This document shows positions 690 to 57,725 of a stretch of 64,000 nt of DNA, in pieces (the first letter of the stretch is position 1; the number at the start of each line of letters is the position of its first letter). Made by a program: the position numbers and the translations under genes. Below the pieces are notes generated by a model. It saw nothing but the letters and a program-made list of their open reading frames with translations. It was not told the DNA's origin and did not search any database. Origin of the DNA: a bacterium (GTDB lineage Bacteria > Patescibacteriota > Minisyncoccia > Phycocordibacterales > UBA2100); contig JAJXVV010000002.1 in the NCBI GenBank assembly GCA_021781955.1, positions 74,730 through 138,729 of the forward strand. Direction: 5' to 3'.

Positions 690-783
690 GCTGATTAGCT
701 GCCAAAATGACGAACGTCGTTTTGGAGACAGCTCATTGACTCGCGTCCAGCCGCTCAAAGCGGTGTAGCGCATGGAGGATAGT

Positions 784-1440
784 ATGGCTAAGATCGTGAC
801 TCGCGGTCAGGCACTTGAACTGACTGCCCGGTTCGGCGTCGATACAAATTGGGATTCCATCGACGGCGATAAACTCCAAGCGGAGATTATCAGCCTTCCG
901 CGTGACGAACTCGGTCGCCGATTCACGGCGTTCGTGAAGAAGGGTTGTCGGCTCGTCATCAAAGGGCCGAGCGCGCTCGTCATCGACCGCTCGAAGCCCT
1001 TCGATCCGGTGAAGTTCATCGGACGAGGCTGGGAGGTCGCCGAGCAGGACGAGCGTTCGCTCGCGCTGACCGGCATCGACTTCTCCGATGTCCGCTTCGA
1101 AAGCGGCCACCAGGAAGGCGAAGGCGTTATCACCGGCGAGGTGAAGCTCGAGCGTCTGAAGGCGATGCCCGAGATTCGCCTTGACGCGAAGATCGGTCAG
1201 GCCCTCTACGAAGAGCCCGGGCAGGCGACGCTCCGCTTCATCTACGAGCACTTCGGTGTCTCGTGGTTTGAGTTGGGCGGAACCGTTCTGCGCGGCTTGG
1301 GCGGCGGCCGGTACTTCCTGTGCCTCGGTCGGCGCGACGACGGCTCGTGGCACTGGTACTACTTCTGGCTCGTCAGCGATCGCCTCCGCGACCGTGTCTC
1401 GCCGCTCCTCGCAAGCAGCCCTTGGGCCTCCGCGGCCTAA
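784..1440 (+). CDS. hypothetical protein
   Basis: Frame 772..1440 is open. SD GGAGGA at 774-779 sits 5 nt before ATG 784 (MAKIVTRG...). Non-repetitive composition. The antisense ORF 733..1524 is R/E-rich and looks spurious. Confidence 0.55.
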   Translation: MAKIVTRGQALELTARFGVDTNWDSIDGDKLQAEIISLPRDELGRRFTAFVKKGCRLVIKGPSALVIDRSKPFDPVKFIGRGWEVAEQDERSLALTGIDFSDVRFESGHQEGEGVITGEVKLERLKAMPEIRLDAKIGQALYEEPGQATLRFIYEHFGVSWFELGGTVLRGLGGGRYFLCLGRRDDGSWHWYYFWLVSDRLRDRVSPLLASSPWASAA

Positions 1441-1475
1441 GCCCTTGCCCTTGCGCACTTTGCGCTTTGCTCTTT

Positions 1476-1510
1476 CGGCCTCCGTGCTTGCACGGAGGCC
1501 GATTGCTTTT
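1476..1510 (+). terminator. rho-independent terminator
   Basis: Hairpin ggcctccgtgc-ttg-cacggaggcc followed by gattgctttt. Confidence 0.5.
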
Positions 1511-1662
1511 GATATGATACGCATGGCGCTAGGCGAATATGCGGGCGATCACGGTCTCCCGCTGCCGAGGCCGGTTTGGCACGGATCCAGAATGTTGCCG
1601 ATTACGGTTTGAGATGGAGTGGTGCATGGGGCACTACAAAAAGTGAAATAACTTGGTGTGGG

Positions 1663-1914
1663 ATGCTATGCGAGTTTCGCTCGCGGATACGATACAGCCC
1701 GAGACCTCCAATCGGGCAGTGGCATGGAAGGCATCTCATACGCAACCGCAACTCGGACGGCAACCTCTACGTTCGCTACCTCTACTGGAACGGCGACAGG
1801 TGGGACTGGAACAACAACTGGCTCGACAACGACTGGAATGGCAACAACCCCGCTGCGGTGCCCGCAACTCGTCTCACTTCTCACCCCGCTTCTTGGCGGG
1901 GTCGAGTTTTGTAA
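1663..1914 (+). CDS. short ORF carrying a DGR-like variable-repeat (VR) tail; possible target-gene remnant
   Basis: In-frame AAC/NNC codon tract at 1741-1860 (cgc AAC cgc AAC tcg GAC GGC AAC CTC TAC ... tgg AAC AAC AAC tgg CTC GAC AAC GAC tgg AAT GGC AAC AAC ccc). The ORF runs to the TAA at 1912-1914. The upstream start is uncertain: the track uses TTG at 1576; the first ATG is at 1663. Confidence 0.35.
   Translation: MLCEFRSRIRYSPRPPIGQWHGRHLIRNRNSDGNLYVRYLYWNGDRWDWNNNWLDNDWNGNNPAAVPATRLTSHPASWRGRVL
1741..1905 (+). repeat. DGR VR-like module: NNC-codon tract, GC-rich IMH-like segment, GC hairpin
   Basis: 10 AAC codons plus GAC/GGC/TAC/CTC/CGC/AAT variants in-frame. Followed by ccccgctgcggtgcccgc and the hairpin ccccgc-ttcttg-gcgggg at 1885-1902. 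Confidence 0.45.
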
Positions 1915-2116
1915 GCTGTCCGTTCCAACCGCCGAGCATCTTTCCGACTTCTTCGACGCGAACCGAAAGCACCGCGTATTTTTTGTTGTCCAGTGATTTC
2001 GTTTCCCAGAGCACCATCAGCAACACCTTCAAAGTGTCCGTTTTTCTAATTGCGAGACGCACATACGGCCGTTTCTCATCCCGTGCAAGAAAACTCGCAG
2101 ATGCTATCGTTTCCAT
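1874..2116 (-). CDS. Avd-like four-helix-bundle protein (DGR accessory variability determinant candidate), possibly truncated
   Basis: C-terminal 80 aa of ORF 1874..2305: ...FLARDEKRPYVRLAIRKTDTLKVLLMVLWETKSL...VEEVGKMLGGWNGQLTK matches the helix 3/4 pattern of TIGR02436/Avd-type proteins. The N-terminal half is not recognisable. Confidence 0.35.
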   Translation of the reverse strand: METIASASFLARDEKRPYVRLAIRKTDTLKVLLMVLWETKSLDNKKYAVLSVRVEEVGKMLGGWNGQLTKLDPAKKRGEK

Positions 2117-2301
2117 GATTTCCACGAACAATGTATCAACACGCTGACCAAGAGAATGTCTGTGCACTTTCGGTAAGGGAGCCGTCCATGTACCTCTCGT
2201 TTTCCGACCGGAGATCCCCCCGAAGGGGAACGAAAATTGCCTCGCCGTGAAGTCGGCGAGGCAGGGGGGCTGCGCAATTGGCGGCGCAGACAGAGCAGAG
2301 T

Positions 2302-2730
2302 TCAATATGATTGAACGCAGATCACGTTGCCGAACTGGTCCGTGCTTGGGAGTAGCCCGAATAGGGGATTACAGCCGCCCAAGTTGTCGAAGTACTGATT
2401 CGGGACGACGTAGGTCGGTCCGGGGAAAAAGTAAGTCTGGCCTGGGAAGGCGTACCCGTTGTTCCAGCCCCCATAGCCGCCTCCGTATCCACCTCCGTAT
2501 CCGCCGAAGCGATTGCCGCCGAAGTTGTGAAAACCGCCTCCAGGGAATCCTCCGTAGCGATGACCGAATCCTCCGCCGCCGTTGTGGAGCCCTCCTCCGC
2601 GGAAGCCTCCAGAGTGCTGGCCGAAGCCTCCTCCGCGGAAGCCGCCGCCCGGGTGGCCGAAAGCGTGGGCGGTGATCGGCTGCATAGTGGTGAGCACGAG
2701 GGCGACTGCCCATATAACGAACGTTCGCAT
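2302..2730 (-). CDS. secreted glycine/histidine-rich low-complexity protein
   Basis: Signal peptide MRTFVIWAVALVLTTMQPITAHA. GGGF(R/G)/GH repeats. Strong SD AGGAGG 9 nt upstream of the ATG. Confidence 0.6.
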   Translation of the reverse strand: MRTFVIWAVALVLTTMQPITAHAFGHPGGGFRGGGFGQHSGGFRGGGLHNGGGGFGHRYGGFPGGGFHNFGGNRFGGYGGGYGGGYGGWNNGYAFPGQTYFFPGPTYVVPNQYFDNLGGCNPLFGLLPSTDQFGNVICVQSY

Positions 2731-4522: not shown

Positions 4523-5128
4523 TCACATGATCTCGCGCTCGAATTCGCCGAACATCTCGACGAGCTGTTCGTGAAGCTTGCCGCGCCGGATATCTTTGGC
4601 AAGCTGTCCGGCAATGGCCGGCCGATCGCGGTCAGTGCGGATCGTCTCGCGCGCCCACTTCTCGTACATCGATATGCGCTCGGCGTATACCAGTACGATG
4701 TTCTGCTCCGTCGTGTTCTCGGGCGGGCAATCCTTGAACACGACGCCGCGATCCGGTCTTTTCGCGTATCGCCGCAGGACCGTTGAAAGCGACGAGAGAA
4801 GGTGGATGATGAAGGCTCTCTGCCTGAGGAGCTCCATTACCTCCGTGTTGTAGACGATGCTGCCGCCGGGGGCGACGATCGTCGGCTCGGTGATCCCTTC
4901 GATCATTTCCCTCACGACGCGCCCTTCAAGCTCAATGAACGCTTCTGCCGACAGTTTCTCCGAAGCCTCTTGGAGCGTCGGGAAGCCGGACGCCTTGAGG
5001 ACGAGGTCGTCGGCGTCGATGAACGCCCATCCCAGCAGGCGAGCGAGCAATTTCCCGATCTTCGTCTTACCGGCGGTAAATATCCCGATAAGCACGATTA
5101 TCGGCGCCAGATGTTTTCTCTTGCGCAT
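4523..5128 (-). CDS. aroK: shikimate kinase-like P-loop kinase
   Basis: Walker A IGIFTAGKTKIGKLLA plus FIDADD. Start trimmed to Met47 (ATG ending 5128) because the longer N-terminus only reads through a palindromic repeat. Confidence 0.65.
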   Translation of the reverse strand: MRKRKHLAPIIVLIGIFTAGKTKIGKLLARLLGWAFIDADDLVLKASGFPTLQEASEKLSAEAFIELEGRVVREMIEGITEPTIVAPGGSIVYNTEVMELLRQRAFIIHLLSSLSTVLRRYAKRPDRGVVFKDCPPENTTEQNIVLVYAERISMYEKWARETIRTDRDRPAIAGQLAKDIRRGKLHEQLVEMFGEFEREIM

Positions 5129-5597: not shown

Positions 5598-6611
5598 ATG
5601 AGCCGCAGAGCGCTCGCCCGTGTCGCGTTCGTAATCGCGGTCGTTGCGGGTACGTTGCTCGTTCTCTCCGGCAAATCTGCCTCAACAGCAAGTCCGCAGT
5701 CGCGACTTGCGACCGATCTCTACCCGCTCTACCCGGGCGCACAGTGGGGAGAGGTCCAGCCGGCGACATCGCCGGATTTCGGCACGGTCGAGCTCGTCGA
5801 GTCATTGCCGTTCGACAACATCACCGATATCGCTTCGGTGACAGCGCCCTACACGCAGTATTACGATCAGAAACTCACACAGGCGGGCTGGACGCGCGAT
5901 CGGTCGCGCGAAGCGGGCGGTCCCGGAGCGGAGCTTGCCGTCTACACCAAGGGTGATCAGTTCATCGTCGTGCTGTTCTCGTCGGTATTCCATATACATT
6001 CGCCTGATGCGCCTGCGCAATGCCCGTGCGATACCACGCTCACCCTCATGAGCGGCACGCAAACCGGTCGAACCATCGCACAAGTACAAGCATCGCGCGC
6101 GTACGCCGATCATGCGGTCGGCTTCTCCATCGCGCTTCCGACGTTGCTCGCCTCGAGCTCGAACGACCTGCTCTTCAGCGTCGACCCTTCGTATGAGTAC
6201 ACGGAAAAGGGTCCGGGCCAATCCATTCCCGGAGTGAAATTCACTATTCCGAAGTCGCTCGCGTCCGGCACGAATCTCGCGCCCGACACGTACCTGAGCG
6301 TTGAGCATTTGCCGAAAGGGGCGGCATGCGACGCGTCCGCGTTCTTGGCGGATCCAGGCGCGACCTCGCACCCGCTCAGGGAGGGCGCGGTGTCGTACTC
6401 GGTCGCTTCTTCGACCGGCGCTGGCGTCGGCAATCGCTACGAGGAGTGGGTTTATGCTCGCACCGGTACGGATCCCTGCATCGCGGTGCGTTACTTCATT
6501 CATTACGCCGCCATCGAGAATTTCCCGCCGGGCGCAGTGCGCGAGTTCGATCATGCGTCCCTTCTCCAGACTTTTGACGCGATACGCCGCACGCTCCGTG
6601 TCGCGCAATAA
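5598..6611 (+). CDS. secreted/anchored hypothetical protein
   Basis: N-terminal TM/signal peptide MSRRALARVAFVIAVVAGTLLVLSG. No recognisable domain. Confidence 0.55.
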   Translation: MSRRALARVAFVIAVVAGTLLVLSGKSASTASPQSRLATDLYPLYPGAQWGEVQPATSPDFGTVELVESLPFDNITDIASVTAPYTQYYDQKLTQAGWTRDRSREAGGPGAELAVYTKGDQFIVVLFSSVFHIHSPDAPAQCPCDTTLTLMSGTQTGRTIAQVQASRAYADHAVGFSIALPTLLASSSNDLLFSVDPSYEYTEKGPGQSIPGVKFTIPKSLASGTNLAPDTYLSVEHLPKGAACDASAFLADPGATSHPLREGAVSYSVASSTGAGVGNRYEEWVYARTGTDPCIAVRYFIHYAAIENFPPGAVREFDHASLLQTFDAIRRTLRVAQ

Positions 6612-6622
6612 CCGATACGCGC

Positions 6623-7036
6623 ATGGACATCCCTCTCTGGAGCATCGTTACCTTGGCGACCGAACTCGTGGTGACCGCGAGCGTTCTCGCTATCATCTGG
6701 CGCGCGTACGCAACGGGCCGGTTCATGACGATGTTTGCCTGGTGGGTGCTTGGCTACGAATTCCTTTTCAATGTGAGCTATATGGCCTCGCGCGAAGCGC
6801 ATGCCGCCACGCGGACGCTCGATCCCTACCTAACGGGGCTCGCGATATTTCACGGCGTGTTCTCGCTCGTGATGTTCTTATCGCTCGTAATATTTTTCTT
6901 CGTTGCGTGGAGGCGCTATGGGCGCGGCGAGAATTTCTTCGCGATACATCCGCGCTTTACCGTATTGTTCGTGACGGCATGGTCCATCTCCATTCTCTCT
7001 GGAGTTCTGCTCTTCGTGCAGCTGTATTTGCTGTAG
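6623..7036 (+). CDS. hypothetical integral membrane protein
   Basis: 137 aa with 4 predicted TM helices. Confidence 0.55.
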   Translation: MDIPLWSIVTLATELVVTASVLAIIWRAYATGRFMTMFAWWVLGYEFLFNVSYMASREAHAATRTLDPYLTGLAIFHGVFSLVMFLSLVIFFFVAWRRYGRGENFFAIHPRFTVLFVTAWSISILSGVLLFVQLYLL

Positions 7037-7230
7037 CGGGGCGCCGGCGTGCGCGCTCGCGCTAGCCAGAAGGTCGATCGCTATGAAATTGGGGCCCCGC
7101 TACCTAGTCCGCCCGAGGGTTTCCGTGCCCTTGCGTGTCCTCATAACCTCTTTTGGGACGCGCGCAAGCGCGCGGCCGATATTCCCGCAGGGGCGCGATG
7201 CTGTGGTACAGTAACTGCATTGCAGAAGGT

Positions 7231-7998: not shown

Positions 7999-8035
7999 TT
8001 ATCCACACTTTTCTACAGAGGACCGTCCTCTGGGG
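7999..8035 (+). repeat. DnaA-box-like TTATCCACA followed by the palindromic repeat element
   Basis: ttatccacac-ttttcta-CAGAGGACCGTCCTCTG-ggg, intergenic. Confidence 0.8.
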
Positions 8036-8161: not shown

Positions 8162-9919
8162 ATGAACCTCTCAAAATTCACGATCTTCGGGGTCGTTGCG
8201 GCCGCAGTGCTCTTGAGCGCTAACACGGCGTTCGCTCAGGCGAGCTACCTCTACAGCAGCGGCTCGTGCACGAATCTCGCCCAGGATCTCTCGTATGGGC
8301 AGCGCGGGACCGATGTTTCTGCTCTGCAGAGTTTCCTCGTGAGCCAAAATTACCCTGGCGGCGGCTCGTGGATGGTCACCGGCTATTTCGGCCAGGCGAC
8401 CGTGCAGGCGGTCCGCAACTTCCAGCAAGCGCACGGTTTGCCGATGACCGGCGCGGTCGACGCGTCGACGCGTGCGGCCATCAACAGCGCTTCGTGCGGC
8501 ACTTTTCCCGGTCTCGGGGGTACCGGCTACACGTACAATTACGATTACAGCTACCAGTGGCCGTACTCCGGCGCGAGCCCGTACACCAACAATTATAACT
8601 ACGGGTTCAACTACAACTACGGCTACAACAACTACAATCAGTGTGGCACCTATCCCTACTACTACCCGTGCTCCAATTACTCCTCCTACGGCACGGCGCC
8701 GCACATCACGTCGTTCTCGCCGACCATCGCCTCGCCGGGTTCGACGGTGACCGTGTACGGCACCAACTTCGATCTCTACAGCAACACGGTTTACGTGGGC
8801 GGTACGACGCTCTCCGGCATACCGTCGCAGAACGGTACGGCCATAACCTTCACGATGCCCGCGACCATGAGCGGGAGCGTTTCGGTCTCGGTCGGCAACG
8901 CGTATGGCACGAGCAACTCGCTCACGATCCAGATGAGCGGATCCGGTTATCCGTACAATTACAACTACCCGCCGTACAACTACCCGTGCGGCTACAACGG
9001 ATATGCTTGCCCGAATGCGCAAACGCCGGTCGTGACCTACCTCTCGCCGCAGCAAGGCGCGGTGGGCGCCTCGGTCACCGTGTACGGCTACGGCCTCAGC
9101 TCGACCGGTAATTCGGTGCATTTCGGCAATGGCATCATCGCCAACCTGATGTCGGTCGACGGTCGCTCGGTCTCGTTCGTCGTGCCCTCATCGCTCTCCG
9201 GTTACGGCTACCAGCCGATCGGCCTCGGCACGTACCAGGTATCCGTCACCAATAGCGACGGGCTTACGAGCAACGCGCTGCCGTTCACCATCACCTCGAC
9301 CTCGCAAGGCGGCAACGTGAGCATCACCAACGTGAGCGGCCCCTCGACCCTTGGCATCGGGGTGTCGGGCACGTGGAGCATCACGGTGCAGAACCCTTCG
9401 AGTTCGTACCTTTCGACCTCGGTCAATTGGGGCGACAGCGGCTACTACGCGCCGTCGACGCAGCAAGCGAACGTCTACTCCGGCTCCAACACGCTCACGT
9501 TCTCGCACGTCTATAGCGCAGGCGGCACCTACACCATCACCTTCACGGTAAGCAACGGGGCGGGGCAATCCGCGACCGCGACCGCGAGCGTCTCGGTATC
9601 CGGCACAGGCGGCCAGGGCGCGGTCACCATCAACTCCATCTCGCCGACCCAAGGCTCGATCGGTACGCAGGTCGCGATCTACGGCTCCGGCTTCGACGCG
9701 TACAACAATACGATCCATTTCGGCTCCGGCGGCACGATGCACGTACCGAGTCAAAACGGCGTCATCTATTACACAGTGCCGTCATACCTCTCGCCGTGCG
9801 ATGTCTCAAGCGGCGGCATCTGCCCGATGTACGCGCAGCAAGTTACCTCCGGCTCGTACCCGATCTACGTGACCAGTCCCAACGGCACGAGCAACACCCT
9901 CTCGTTCCAGGTGCAGTAA
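8162..9919 (+). CDS. secreted cell-surface protein: PG-binding domain, Y/N-rich linker, IPT/TIG-like repeats
   Basis: Signal peptide. PG_binding_1-like segment GQRGTDVSALQSFLV...VQAVRNFQQAHGLPMTG. Repeated SPTxxSPGSTVTVYGxxF units. Confidence 0.75.
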   Translation: MNLSKFTIFGVVAAAVLLSANTAFAQASYLYSSGSCTNLAQDLSYGQRGTDVSALQSFLVSQNYPGGGSWMVTGYFGQATVQAVRNFQQAHGLPMTGAVDASTRAAINSASCGTFPGLGGTGYTYNYDYSYQWPYSGASPYTNNYNYGFNYNYGYNNYNQCGTYPYYYPCSNYSSYGTAPHITSFSPTIASPGSTVTVYGTNFDLYSNTVYVGGTTLSGIPSQNGTAITFTMPATMSGSVSVSVGNAYGTSNSLTIQMSGSGYPYNYNYPPYNYPCGYNGYACPNAQTPVVTYLSPQQGAVGASVTVYGYGLSSTGNSVHFGNGIIANLMSVDGRSVSFVVPSSLSGYGYQPIGLGTYQVSVTNSDGLTSNALPFTITSTSQGGNVSITNVSGPSTLGIGVSGTWSITVQNPSSSYLSTSVNWGDSGYYAPSTQQANVYSGSNTLTFSHVYSAGGTYTITFTVSNGAGQSATATASVSVSGTGGQGAVTINSISPTQGSIGTQVAIYGSGFDAYNNTIHFGSGGTMHVPSQNGVIYYTVPSYLSPCDVSSGGICPMYAQQVTSGSYPIYVTSPNGTSNTLSFQVQ

Positions 9920-10015
9920 AAATGCCGGACGAAGCGCCCGAGAAGATGCTCGCGGGTTCCTGTCGATAGTGGATAGCGCGGCTCTGCGCATCTCTCGCCG
10001 CGGTACAATGGCGGC

Positions 10016-10186
10016 ATGGCGAAGAATGGTCCGAAAGGGAAGGGGCGCTCGGGTACGGTAAAGAGCCGCACGCAGGTATTGAGCGGGCGCAACAAGCGCT
10101 GGACGAAGATCGACGCGAAGACCGGCCGTTTCATGGATCAGATGGCGAAGAGAGGGCGCGCGTTCAAAGGCGTGAAAATGAAGTAG
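10016..10186 (+). CDS. small basic protein (56 aa), hypothetical
   Basis: ATG 10016 to TAG 10184-10186. K/R-rich. tacaat upstream. The overlapping antisense ORFs look spurious. Confidence 0.35.
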   Translation: MAKNGPKGKGRSGTVKSRTQVLSGRNKRWTKIDAKTGRFMDQMAKRGRAFKGVKMK

Positions 10187-10218
10187 CGCGTGAGCGTGCC
10201 GCGCGGTACCATACATGC

Positions 10219-11298
10219 ATGTTGCGCACCCCGTTCTACGATCCGGAGAGGTCGTATGAGGATAACTACGATGCGGGCCCGTTCGGTGCGCTCGCTGGGC
10301 TCGATACGTATCAGATGGACGGCGAACCGCAGGCCGATTTTCTCGGCCAGAGAGTGTACGCGCCGTTCGGCATTCCGGCCGGACCGCTCTTGAACAGTGC
10401 GTATTGTGCCGCCGCCTTCAAGAAGGGTTTTGATATCTGCGTGTACAAAACGGTGCGCAGCGACGCATTCCCGTGCCACCCGTTCCCCAACGTGCTCGCC
10501 ATCCATCCCGAGGGAGACCTCACGCTCGAAGCGCTCAAGCGCCCGCTCGTGACGGATGCCTCGTACACCGAGCCGCTTTCCATAACCAACTCCTTCGGCG
10601 TGCCGTCGAAAACCGCCGCCGCATGGCAAGAAGACGCGAAGAAGGCGGTCGAGGCCGCCGGCAAAGGCCAAGTGCTCGTGTTGAGCTTCATGGGGACGGT
10701 GCGACCCGGCCAGACGGAGCAGGAATTCATCGACGACTACGCGCTCGCGGCGCGAATGGCTGCGGAGACCGGCGCGAAAGTGCTCGAAACCAATCTCTCA
10801 TGCCCAAACATCGGCAATGAGGGTTTGGTGTGCTACAACCTCGACGTTACCGAGAAGGTCGTCAAAGCCATACGCAAGGAGATCGGTTCGACGCCGCTCG
10901 TTCTCAAGGTCGGTTACTACCAGAACGACGCGGATATGGAGCGCCTCGCGGAAGCGGTGAATGAGTACGCGGATTCGGTCGCCGGCATCAATACGCTACA
11001 GGCTGAGATACGCAATGCGGCAGGGGAACAGGCGCTGCCCGGCTCGCCAGCACGTTTGCGCAGCGGCGTGTGTGGCGCGGGCATTCGCTGGGCGGGACTC
11101 GGCTTCGTGGAGCGCATGCACGCGATACGGGAGAGGCGCGGATTCTCATTCTCGATCGAAGGTGTCGGCGGAGTGATGAACGCAGAGGATTACAAAACGT
11201 ATCGCGACCTCGGCGCTGATTCGGTCATGAGTGCGACGGGCGCGATGTGGGACCCATACCTGGCGAGGGAGATAAAGGAGGCGTACCCGCATGCATAG
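10219..11298 (+). CDS. dihydroorotate dehydrogenase family (class 1-like) oxidoreductase
   Basis: ETNLSCPN signature and TIM-barrel flavoprotein pattern. Confidence 0.7.
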   Translation: MLRTPFYDPERSYEDNYDAGPFGALAGLDTYQMDGEPQADFLGQRVYAPFGIPAGPLLNSAYCAAAFKKGFDICVYKTVRSDAFPCHPFPNVLAIHPEGDLTLEALKRPLVTDASYTEPLSITNSFGVPSKTAAAWQEDAKKAVEAAGKGQVLVLSFMGTVRPGQTEQEFIDDYALAARMAAETGAKVLETNLSCPNIGNEGLVCYNLDVTEKVVKAIRKEIGSTPLVLKVGYYQNDADMERLAEAVNEYADSVAGINTLQAEIRNAAGEQALPGSPARLRSGVCGAGIRWAGLGFVERMHAIRERRGFSFSIEGVGGVMNAEDYKTYRDLGADSVMSATGAMWDPYLAREIKEAYPHA

Positions 11299-14457: not shown

Positions 14458-15510
14458 CTAGATTTCCACGAGCTCTTCCCACGGCCTGCCGGCGACGCCG
14501 AAGTGCCCGTACGCGGCCGTTTCCCGGAATATCGGCCGGGTGAGCCCGAGCCGCTCAATAATGGCCTGCGGGCGGAAGTCGAAGTGCTTCGTCACCACGG
14601 ACGTGAGGTTCTTGCCCTTGTCGTCGAATGCTTCCACCATGACGGGCTCAACGCGTCCGATGGCGTAGGCGACGGAGACGAGCGCCTTCTTCGCGTGGCC
14701 GTTCGCGACGAGATTTTTCGCGGCGAAGCGGCACATGTACGCGGCAGAGCGGTCCACCTTGGTCGCATCCTTTCCTGAGAACGCGCCGCCGCCGTGCGGC
14801 ATGAGGCCGCCGTACGTGTCGACCATAATCTTGCGGCCGGTCAGCCCCGCATCGGCCGCGAAGCCGCCGATCTCGAATTTGCCCGTGGGGTTGACCAGTA
14901 TCTCGATGTTTTTCGTCGAGCCCAAGATCGGCGTAAAGAGGTGCTTGATGAGCTCTTTACGAATGTCCTCCTGCGAGATCTTCTTGTCATGCTGCGTCGA
15001 GGTGAGCGCGGTGATGACCTTGCCTTGGGAGATGGTGACTTGCGTCTTGCCATCGGGCTTGAGCCACTTGAGCGTGCCGTCGCGGCGCAGCTTTTCCAGA
15101 CGGCGCGCGAGCGCGTGCGCGAGCACCACGCCTTTGGGCAGGTACTCTTTCGTCTCATTGGTGGCGTAACCGTACATGATGCCCTGGTCGCCGGCGCCGC
15201 CCACGTCGACGCCTATCGCAATATCGGGCGACTGCTTCGCGATCGTGTTGAGGACTTTCAGTTTCTCCGTATAGCCGATATCGCGATACACCTTGCGCGC
15301 GATTTTCTCGAAATCGACCTTCGCCCTCGTCTTCACTTCGCCGCCGAGCATGAGGGTACCGTGGCTGCCGAAACTCTCGACCGCGACGCGCGAGAGCGGG
15401 TCTTGCGCGAGACAGGCGTCGAGTATCGCGTCGGATATCTGATCGCACACCTTGTCGGGGTGGCCGCTGGTAACGCTCTCGGTCGTGTATCTTTCTAAGA
15501 GGTGGAACAT
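14458..15510 (-). CDS. metK: S-adenosylmethionine synthetase
   Basis: Motifs GHPDKVCDQISD, GAGDQG and DTYGG; 350 aa. Confidence 0.95.
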   Translation of the reverse strand: MFHLLERYTTESVTSGHPDKVCDQISDAILDACLAQDPLSRVAVESFGSHGTLMLGGEVKTRAKVDFEKIARKVYRDIGYTEKLKVLNTIAKQSPDIAIGVDVGGAGDQGIMYGYATNETKEYLPKGVVLAHALARRLEKLRRDGTLKWLKPDGKTQVTISQGKVITALTSTQHDKKISQEDIRKELIKHLFTPILGSTKNIEILVNPTGKFEIGGFAADAGLTGRKIMVDTYGGLMPHGGGAFSGKDATKVDRSAAYMCRFAAKNLVANGHAKKALVSVAYAIGRVEPVMVEAFDDKGKNLTSVVTKHFDFRPQAIIERLGLTRPIFRETAAYGHFGVAGRPWEELVEI

Positions 15511-15549: not shown

Positions 15550-15655
15550 ATGCGTATCATCCCACCAGGCTGGATGGAGCACCTTGTCTTTCTCGGATAG
15601 GTTGCCGGCGGGTCATCGAGCCAGTTCTCTTGCCGCGCTCTTGATACGATATTCA
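15550..15655 (-). ncRNA. SAM-I (S-box) riboswitch in the metK leader
   Basis: Minus-strand read cgUAUCAAGAG...AGAGAaCUGGCuCGAUGAcCC..CGGCAACC...AAGGUGCUccAuCC...GAUGAUACG matches the S-box core. P1 pairs cguauc with gauacg. Confidence 0.7.
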
Positions 15656-38191: not shown

Positions 38192-38286
38192 GGAGGGTTC
38201 GCATAGTGGTCTAGTGCGCCGCTTTGGAGAAGCGGTATACCGCAAGGTATCGAGGGTTCGAATCCCTCACCCTCCGCTCGTAGTAT
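38192..38286 (+). tRNA. tRNA-Ser (GGA), class II with long variable arm
   Basis: Acceptor ggagggt/accctcc. Anticodon stem ccgct/agcgg with loop ttGGAga. T-loop ggttcgaatcc. Confidence 0.8.
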
Positions 38287-47401: not shown

Positions 47402-47738
47402 CGCCTGCGTTAGGCAGTCGCTCCGACCTGGCGTCGGAGAGGAAAGTCCGGACACGCACTTCGACGCTCGTCGGAGTAGCAGGGTAGCGGGTAACGCCCG
47501 CCTGGGTGATCCAAGGGATGCGAACAGAGACGCCCGAGCCGAGAGGCAAGGGACTCCGCGAGGAGTAGCTCATGCGGGAACGCATGAGGTGCAACGGCAA
47601 AATTCCTACCCGCGTGCAAGGCCGTGTCCAGCTGTCATTCTCAATTGAAATGACCGCTGGAAGTGCCGCTCGAGGTGAACGGCGACGTTCATCCCAGATA
47701 AATGATTGCCCTCGACAGAATCCGGCTTACAAATGCAG
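47402..47738 (+). ncRNA. rnpB: RNase P RNA, bacterial type A
   Basis: GAGGAAAGUCCGGAC, AGGGUAGCGGGUAACGCCCGCCUGGG and ACAGAAUCCGGCUUA. -10 cataat at 47392-47397. Confidence 0.8.
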
Positions 47739-47740
47739 AT

Positions 47741-47770
47741 GCAAAACCCGCCTCTCGGCGGGCTTTGTTT
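47741..47770 (+). terminator. rho-independent terminator after rnpB
   Basis: cccgcc-tctc-ggcggg followed by ctttgttttt. Confidence 0.6.
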
Positions 47771-57705: not shown

Positions 57706-57725
57706 CAGAGGACCGTCCTCTGTAT
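57706..57725. repeat. palindromic repeat copy preceded by a degenerate DnaA-box-like motif
   Basis: cttatccccac-tttcac-cCAGAGGACCGTCCTCTG. Confidence 0.8.

Follow-up and report, generated by a model that had tools for sequence, protein, structure and literature searches.

A chimeric, reverse transcriptase-less remnant of a diversity-generating retroelement beside an apparently orphaned variable repeat in a Patescibacteria genome

The stretch of patescibacterial DNA considered here (64,000 nucleotides (nt), positions 74,730 to 138,729 of contig JAJXVV010000002.1, NCBI GenBank assembly GCA_021781955.1; hereafter the window) carries close to its beginning part of a diversity-generating retroelement (DGR). 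In an intact DGR cassette of this kind, the reverse transcriptase (RT) and the accessory protein Avd would bind the RNA of a template repeat (TR), reverse transcription would make errors opposite adenines, and the resulting complementary DNA (cDNA) would overwrite the matching variable repeat (VR), located at the 3' end of a target gene the product of which is predicted to be lectin-like. The locus is a DGR of the known Patescibacteria type, the local copy of which (module 2) is a chimeric remnant without RT beside an orphaned VR; a complete cassette (module 1) is located upstream of the window. The features of module 2 are, in window coordinates:

784..1440, plus strand: DGR target gene of 218 amino acids (aa), 218-type subfamily, 30% identical to the upstream 189-aa target
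1286..1414, plus strand: VR2, the actual VR in the window, within the 3' end of the open reading frame (ORF) 784..1440
1475..1502, plus strand: intrinsic terminator of the 218-aa gene, a 12-bp stem followed by TTGCTTTT
1510..1518, plus strand: extended -10-like box TGATATGAT, putatively for the TR RNA, TGnTAnAAT-like (columns 46-54 of the leader alignment)
1525..1740, plus strand: structured leader RNA directly 5' of TR2, chimeric, 218-type to about 1606 and 189-type from about 1607
1744..1867, plus strand: TR2, a copy of the 189-type template repeat, 96.1% identical to TR1 (segment compared 1741-1868)
1883..1912, plus strand: stem-loop and U-tract following the TR, a terminator-like site
1874..2178, minus strand: avd2, a 5'-truncated Avd gene fragment recognized by its homology to Avd1, without helix 1, poly-C tract and native start
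2179..2305, minus strand: non-homologous 5' extension of the mechanical ORF, not avd, as similarity to module 1 does not continue past 2178

To extend the window, contigs encoding exactly the 218-aa protein of 784..1440 were looked up, and 14 were found; the 222-aa form (ORF 772..1440) gave no match in the same kind of look-up, the form starting at 784 being the one that matched. The ENA contig k141_294587 (160 kb, hereafter locus L001) is the same as the window over the full overlap of 11,440 nt, window position x corresponding to L001 x+9217, and the NCBI contig DAICBI010000024.1 (GCA_027428535.1) differs from the L001/window sequence at a single base in 14,249. On this extended sequence a complete 189-type DGR sits 2.6-5 kb upstream of window position 1 in the order VR1, leader 1, TR1, avd1 and RT:

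L001 4142-4711: 189-aa target gene of module 1
L001 4583-4706: VR1, in the 189-aa target
L001 about 4785-5037: leader 1, conserved
L001 5039-5162: TR1
L001 5178-5197: hairpin of module 1
L001 5184 to about 5540, minus strand: avd1, with a bAvd match
L001 5539-5550 (window -3678..-3667): poly-G tract of 12 nt
L001 5561-6577 (window -3656..-2640), plus strand: RT, RVT_1

The upstream RT possesses the motifs LGNLTSQ and YADD, in agreement with the [ILV]GxxxSQ and YxDD motifs of DGR-clade RTs, and matches Pfam RVT_1 (E=1e-21). Its closest PDB entry is 8ub7, a 328-aa protein entered just as 'Reverse transcriptase' (E=2.6e-47), which we take to be the bRT of Bordetella phage, while a group II intron RT is matched at 1.2e-22. 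Of the 34 A sites of TR1, 21 are changed in VR1, and all other positions of the 124-nt repeat are identical; in the target P0121 of another genome, which is 90% identical to P0001, the changes are nearly confined to residues coded by TR adenines. The adenine-only differences between TR1 and VR1, the latter in the 3' end of an ORF, together with the RT motifs therefore place a canonical DGR just outside the window, and the TR1/VR1 pair would seem to be still subject to rewriting. A previous reading of the window, made from its letters only (the sequence-only reading), had considered the locus DGR-derived and offered as one alternative that RT and TR lie upstream; the upstream TR1, VR1 and RT and the identity of TR1 to the flagged tract agree with this view. 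Both the adjacent RT with a YxDD motif and the near-identical repeat copy that an extension of the contig was expected to reveal have been found, the latter as TR1.

Relatives of the RT (58-91% identity) were taken from 80 GTDB species genomes, mostly of the Patescibacteria group (Paceibacterota, Nomura-, Wildermuth-, Yanofsky-, Kaiser- and Saccharibacteria), and the GroEL encoded in the window is closest to Candidatus Kaiserbacteria. About 66 loci, from Paceibacteria-class metagenome-assembled genomes (MAGs), display one layout, in which the TR comes about 450-500 nt downstream of the VR and is followed by avd, on the reverse strand, and the RT. In just one of these loci, L001, is the locus's own TR accompanied within +-10 kb by an additional TR-like copy.

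This extra copy is the tract that had drawn attention to the locus. Read in the frame of ORF 1576..1914, positions 1741-1860 comprise 40 codons, among them 10 AAC, 5 GAC, 3 each of GGC, TAC, CTC and CGC, and 1 AAT, and the next-richest 40-codon stretch in all six frames of the 64 kb (8513-8640, plus strand, in a 585-aa ORF with PG_binding and TIG domains) contains 6 AAC. The GC-rich 20-mer CCCCGCTGCGGTGCCCGCAA (1848-1867) occurs once in the window when up to 3 mismatches are allowed, with a chance expectation of 0, so that the AAC-rich tract and the GC-rich segment of the sequence-only reading are both real. The tract retains 0.96 of the non-A positions and 0.93 of the A positions of TR1, TR2 is 97.7% identical to the TR of locus L007, and the NNC codons of the tract recur in the TRs of L001, L007 and L011. 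VR1 differs from TR2 at adenines and by 3 non-A mismatches, which fall at sites where VR1 and TR1 agree, the TR2-specific non-A bases being G at window 1804, T at 1839 and C at 1842. As in at least 59 loci, TR2 is placed directly after the conserved leader and ahead of terminator and avd. Since it is 96% identical to TR1 with the adenines kept, the tract is identified as TR2, and it is almost certainly a TR and not a VR: the adenines are retained in 1744-1867, VR1 differs from it at adenines and its position is that of the TR in the family, whereas replaced template adenines and a location inside a conserved coding target, as expected of a VR, are not found for 1741-1860. Chance or low-complexity asparagine coding is ruled out by the AAC count and the identity to TR1.

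The real VR of the window is the related repeat at 1286-1414, which the sequence-only reading overlooked. VR2 forms the 3' end of a target-family ORF, the 218-aa subfamily of which has 254 matches in Patescibacteria and the C-terminal domain of which is predicted to be C-type-lectin-like, and its cognate TRs are found in other genomes. Another genome has a complete DGR, L095, from the TR of which VR2 differs at 19 of 30 A and 3 of 99 non-A sites; for the TR of L094, in a sister genome, the figures are 16 of 24 A and 1 of 74 non-A sites. L095 encodes target paralogues 67% and 66% identical to the 218-aa protein, and all mismatches between its TR (14810-14938) and its two VRs are at adenines (21/21 and 23/23); L094 encodes an orthologue 81% identical to the target, with the TR 300 nt 3' of the gene. 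Compared with the adjacent TR2, on the other hand, VR2 differs at 23 of 33 A sites and also at 36 of 99 non-A sites, with a 1-codon indel and unlike 3' ends. TR2 and VR2 are thus not cognate and share no 3' end for the initiation of mutagenic homing (IMH), and because of the 36 non-A mismatches and the different 3' ends TR2 cannot rewrite VR2. The possibility that VR2 is a decayed partner of TR2 was rejected, as the 218-type TRs of L094 and L095 explain VR2 with 1-3 non-A mismatches. A 218-type TR was found neither in the window nor in the 9.2 kb upstream; with its cognate TR absent from the sequence inspected, VR2 would be orphaned and frozen.

Module 2 as a whole is very probably a chimera that left VR2 orphaned. 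Window 1440-1606 is 97% identical to L094, and at GCCGATTACG followed by G (1606/1607) the identity drops to about 60%; the leader core 1598-1740 is 97.2% identical to leader 1, and window 1403-2178 aligns to L001 4695-5473. A fusion at about 1606/1607 would have brought the 218-type target with VR2, its terminator and the pre-leader together with parts of a 189-type cassette, namely leader core, TR2, terminator and the 3'-terminal 305 nt of avd, and the 5' end of avd, with any RT once beyond it, would have been deleted at 2178. Over 300 nt, avd2 shows 86.7% nucleotide identity to avd1 and 88.7% to the avd of L007; a recent tandem duplication of module 1 as the source of module 2 was rejected, as the avd copies are 87% identical and no closer than to the L007 cassette. 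A tblastn search of the 64 kb with the element's own RT gave a best E of 0.42, which is in line with the statement of the sequence-only reading that no RT lies in the window, and the RT nearest to TR2 is 5.4 kb upstream of it. For the local copy, the second alternative of that reading, a decayed remnant, also holds, since the RT is missing, avd is truncated and TR2 and VR2 are non-cognate.

Avd2 is a fragment and not a divergent full gene. The ORF 1874..2305 on the minus strand matches the NCBIfam model DivGenRetAVD (NF033474) with E=1.3e-13 and 51.1 bits (cutoff 80) at profile positions 20-102 of 104, and Pfam PF22296 bAvd with E=2.8e-9 and 37.8 bits, below the cutoff of 40, the match being limited to the C-terminal approximately 100 residues; a match to the full four-helix bundle above a curated cutoff is thus not obtained. 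Avd1, read from the TTG at L001 5537, covers profile positions 1-102 and scores 42.1 bits with Pfam, above the cutoff. Avd2 is 95.8% identical in amino acids to residues 24-118 of Avd1, and the codon differences between the two genes are 32 synonymous and 6 non-synonymous. Homology to avd1 stops at 2178, the first 42 codons of the ORF are unrelated, and the extension crosses the terminator of a glycine-rich gene (2263-2238, minus strand), for which reasons a full gene with a divergent N-terminus was rejected. Of the convergent Avd-like ORF proposed earlier, the C-terminal Avd homology is therefore confirmed by the profile search suggested for it, albeit with scores under the curated cutoffs, and the remainder is not avd. 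A search of PDB sequences with avd2 gave no meaningful match. The 142-aa glycine-rich protein (window 2302-2730, minus strand), the terminator of which abuts the truncated avd, has a signal-peptide-like N-terminus and GGGF/GGY repeats and found no family match.

The region between the target terminator and the TR, about 215-250 nt in length, is a leader conserved at 77 loci (nhmmer). Rfam holds no counterpart, a scan of 1400-2400 at E<=10 giving chance hairpin matches to microRNA and long non-coding RNA models. The RNAalifold structure of 60 aligned leaders has 52 pairs, 46 of which show compensatory double changes; 95.7% of the alignment cells can pair versus 76.0% in shuffled alignments and 37-51% when the 3' partners are slid, double-change cells number 673 versus 170 in the shuffles, and none of 500 shuffles attains any of the observed covariation measures. 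A 12-bp long-range helix, 1656-1667 with 1729-1740, ends 2-3 nt 5' of the TR, where it could plausibly act as a stop for cDNA synthesis; in a published RNA survey the analysis upstream of the TR was limited to 40 nt. Helix H2 straddles the 1606/1607 junction and has 3 broken pairs in the window leader, a mild defect, as 2 or more pairs of H2a are broken in 12 of the 60 aligned sequences. At columns 46-54 the consensus of the 60-sequence alignment is TGATAnAAT, which suggests that the corresponding box at 1510-1518 is the promoter of the TR RNA.

Downstream of TR2, an 8-bp stem with a tetraloop, ACCCCGCU-UCUU-GGCGGGGU (1883-1902), is followed by the U-rich tail CGAGUUUUGU. A corresponding hairpin, the stem of which covaries, stands ahead of a TTTTGTTTT-like tract in 59 of 59 related loci, and because the U-tract follows the hairpin in every one of them this structure looks like the intrinsic terminator of the TR RNA. 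The hairpin of the sequence-only reading is thus real and slightly larger than described (1883-1902 instead of 1885-1902), but it belongs to the TR and not to the 3' end of a VR. It may in addition be a candidate Avd-binding stem-loop, by analogy with the putative stem-loops immediately past the TR that have been proposed to bind Avd in many DGRs, those of the candidate phyla radiation (CPR) among them (10.1101/2023.10.23.563531). The template hence appears to be a self-contained non-coding RNA gene of approximately 390 nt consisting of -10 box, leader of approximately 215 nt, 124-nt TR and terminator stem-loop. The TR2 unit keeps every part of this gene, the broken H2 pairs being its sole defect.

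This organization bears directly on the view, preferred in the sequence-only reading, that the tract is an already diversified VR ending a short protein-coding target, ORF 1576/1663..1914. An open frame does cover the tract, AAC is interspersed with other NNC codons and a gene caller also lists an 83-aa ORF over it. Yet the adenines of TR1 are largely kept in the tract, VR1 differs from TR1 only at adenines and from the tract at adenines plus just 3 other sites, and the NNC codons are scaffold codons and not mutated AAC, because the same codons stand in the TRs of L001, L007 and L011. The supposed gene found no homologue or domain match in Pfam and NCBIfam and forms a cluster of 1 member, and its 5' half overlies the leader RNA that covaries across 60 loci; on these grounds the ORF is spurious and not a target gene, and the diversified-VR view can be given practically no credence. 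Another explanation for the mismatched VR2 and TR2 would be a metagenome assembly chimera made at the repeated leader. Leader 1 and leader 2 do have long exact stretches in common, 2 Logan contigs end at window 1655 and the NCBI contig breaks off at the cassette upstream. At 1606/1607, however, the two leader types share just approximately 13 nt, too short for k-mer joins; the junction is present in at least 5 independent assemblies (2 ENA, 2 Logan, 1 NCBI), the Logan contigs extending 49 nt beyond it, and TR2 and avd2, 4-13% of the positions of which are different in copy 1, run into 62 kb of unique chromosome. An assembly artefact is therefore very improbable. Scans of metagenome contigs gave 0 matches each for the chimeric junction and the TR2-specific 3' end.

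Less clear-cut is whether module 2 is still of use to the cell. Recombination and deletion between two DGR cassettes would have left TR2 and avd2 behind in an inert state, and the balance leans to module 2 being now a non-functional relic. Several observations weigh against this reading and in favour of TR2 as a functional second template, the RNA of which the upstream RT and Avd1 would use in trans on VR1 or on a VR elsewhere. The TR2 unit is intact, with promoter box, leader helices except for the 3 H2 pairs, every AAC codon and terminator; conservation of leader 2 and TR2 is far above that of the synonymous sites of avd (96-97% for leader and TR, with 87% for avd nucleotides), and this conservation and the strong purifying selection on avd2 reflected in its codon differences fit continuing function as well as recent inactivation. 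The terminal 20 nt of TR2 are those of TR1 and VR1, because of which a TR2 cDNA could home to VR1. In 59 of 59 loci the TR RNA stops ahead of avd and RT and is in this sense a separate transcript by design, and DGRs with multiple TRs are on record (PMC6642488). In locus L066, a satellite without RT 2.4 kb upstream of a complete cassette (6585-7222; 9000-10939) consists of VR, leader, TR and a 22-aa avd stump, and the TR is cognate to its own VR, with 15 of 15 mismatches at A; this satellite indicates that RT and Avd can serve a separate TR unit in trans, which is probably so in this DGR family. Moreover, approximately 74 kb of the genome were inspected, and a VR matching TR2 or a 218-type TR could be located elsewhere. 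Against a second template speak the 3 broken pairs in H2 of the chimeric leader, the lack of a VR with the TR2 signature in the 74 kb, the extra copy of an own TR in just 1 of about 66 related loci, and the VR1 of this population, which shows the TR1 state at 3 of 3 diagnostic non-A positions and was last written from TR1. A search with an adenine-masked pattern for a VR cognate to TR2 gave 0 matches in a collection of genome contigs that does not include this host genome. Use of TR2 as a live second template is accordingly considered unlikely, and the inert relic is preferred.

Some related loci are of interest in their own right. In L012 (10659-10817; 11187-12242) the leader is cut after about 130 nt beside an IS110-family transposase and the cassette is decaying. 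Decay is likewise visible in L094 (11016-11113), where AT-rich foreign DNA truncates the TR after 98 nt and neither avd nor RT lies within 10 kb. The DGR cassette of L007 (9991-14740), in a MAG labelled Paceibacterota, stands beside cytochrome oxidase genes (COX1-4, UbiA), and a near-identical cassette in L011 (14868-19185), a JGI metagenome contig, has genes for histidinol dehydrogenase, EPSP synthase and DUF2948 as neighbours. Integrase/resolvase genes are located close to both cassettes, and these settings suggest mobile cassettes or binning problems.

Between the starts of avd and RT, 68 of 81 related loci possess a poly-G tract of 8-14 nt (mode 10), which falls in the 5' coding region of avd, where it encodes ...TPPP followed by RLLPLLQK. 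In 23 of 65 loci the poly-G is read through by an ORF that begins upstream of it and is at least 100 codons long, the frame being interrupted in approximately two thirds of the assemblies. The tract length varies among assemblies of the same population (12 G versus 11 G), and the NCBI contig ends at the tract. Phase variation or transcriptional slippage controlling Avd could be the cause, or else a homopolymer assembly error; a report linking DGRs to homopolymer switching was not found in the PubMed Central open-access and bioRxiv literature. As a speculative proposal, with the odds clearly against it, the template might be a free-standing non-coding RNA gene of approximately 390 nt recruited in trans, TR2 and the L066 satellite being interchangeable cartridges and TR2 live for VR1, the 5' leader might take over the priming and stop functions of the 3' Sp segment of the Bordetella phage element, and the poly-C tract in avd might switch the system on and off.

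Outside the DGR locus, a 17-nt palindrome, CAGAGGACSGTCCTCTG, has 8 copies in the window with 0 expected (plus-strand starts 5205, 8016, 22980, 23215, 23239, 46271, 46338 and 57706). The copies at 8016, 46271 and 46338 have TTATCCACA, the DnaA-box consensus, 12-13 nt upstream, and the copy at 57706 has TTATCCCCA; the palindrome may be an operator or an element of the repetitive extragenic palindromic (REP) kind. The Rfam scan at gathering thresholds recovered a SAM riboswitch (15551-15650, minus strand), a bacterial RNase P class A RNA (47402-47745, plus strand) and four tRNAs (at 38192, 51907, 53422 and 53855).

In the annotation of CPR genomes, AAC-rich tracts adjoining avd should be taken as TRs and not VRs, the real VR here being located in the neighbouring ORF, and a DGR goes unseen if a window or contig ends at a repeated cassette. 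With respect to DGR biology, the locus is a natural case of cassette recombination and decay, in which a swap of the TR subtype behind a target freezes its VR. The covarying leader 5' of the TR, absent from Rfam, and the conserved homopolymer at the coding start of avd are leads to the mechanism of patescibacterial DGRs.

Comparison with known systems places the upstream cassette among the CPR DGRs of architecture B3, TR-(avd)-RT, to which 90% of CPR DGRs belong according to Wu et al. (2018, PMC5758913). It has the same order, with a 3' VR in the target, the TR about 460 nt further on, a reverse-strand avd and the RT. The window copy differs in that it comprises leader, TR and two-thirds of avd (the 3' part), lacks an RT and is fused to a target of a non-cognate subtype. 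The upstream cassette probably belongs to DGR clade 2, which is restricted to Patescibacteria (Roux et al. 2021, PMC8144416).

The DGR of Bordetella phage BPP-1 (mtd-VR, avd, TR, Sp, brt) has in common with this family the adenine-specific changes from TR to VR, the four-helix-bundle accessory protein Avd, a variable protein that is lectin-like (in this family by prediction), an RT for which PDB entry 8ub7 is the nearest in sequence and a stem-loop just 3' of the TR (10.1101/2023.10.23.563531). In this family, however, avd is on the opposite strand, the TR RNA stops at an intrinsic terminator about 15 nt past the TR, where that of BPP-1 continues into the 140-nt Sp and the RT, and a large structured segment (about 215 nt, 52 pairs) is located 5' of the TR.

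Orphaned target genes and VRs after loss of the core DGR have been described in Treponema denticola isolates (Nimkulrat et al. 2016, PMC4891356). Like these orphans, VR2 shows nearly adenine-only differences from the TRs of other genomes and lacks a cognate TR of its own in the sequence inspected; the difference is that here the cognate TR has been replaced in situ by a TR of another subtype, a complete DGR of which is located 5 kb away. DGRs with more than one TR are known as well, for example the two-TR element of Stenotrophomonas sp. SKA14 (Yan et al. 2019, PMC6642488). The present locus likewise has two TR copies within 6 kb of one RT, but in contrast to such DGRs, and to L066 with two TRs that each have a cognate VR, its second TR stands without a cognate VR in the sequence examined and next to a VR that other genomes' templates explain.

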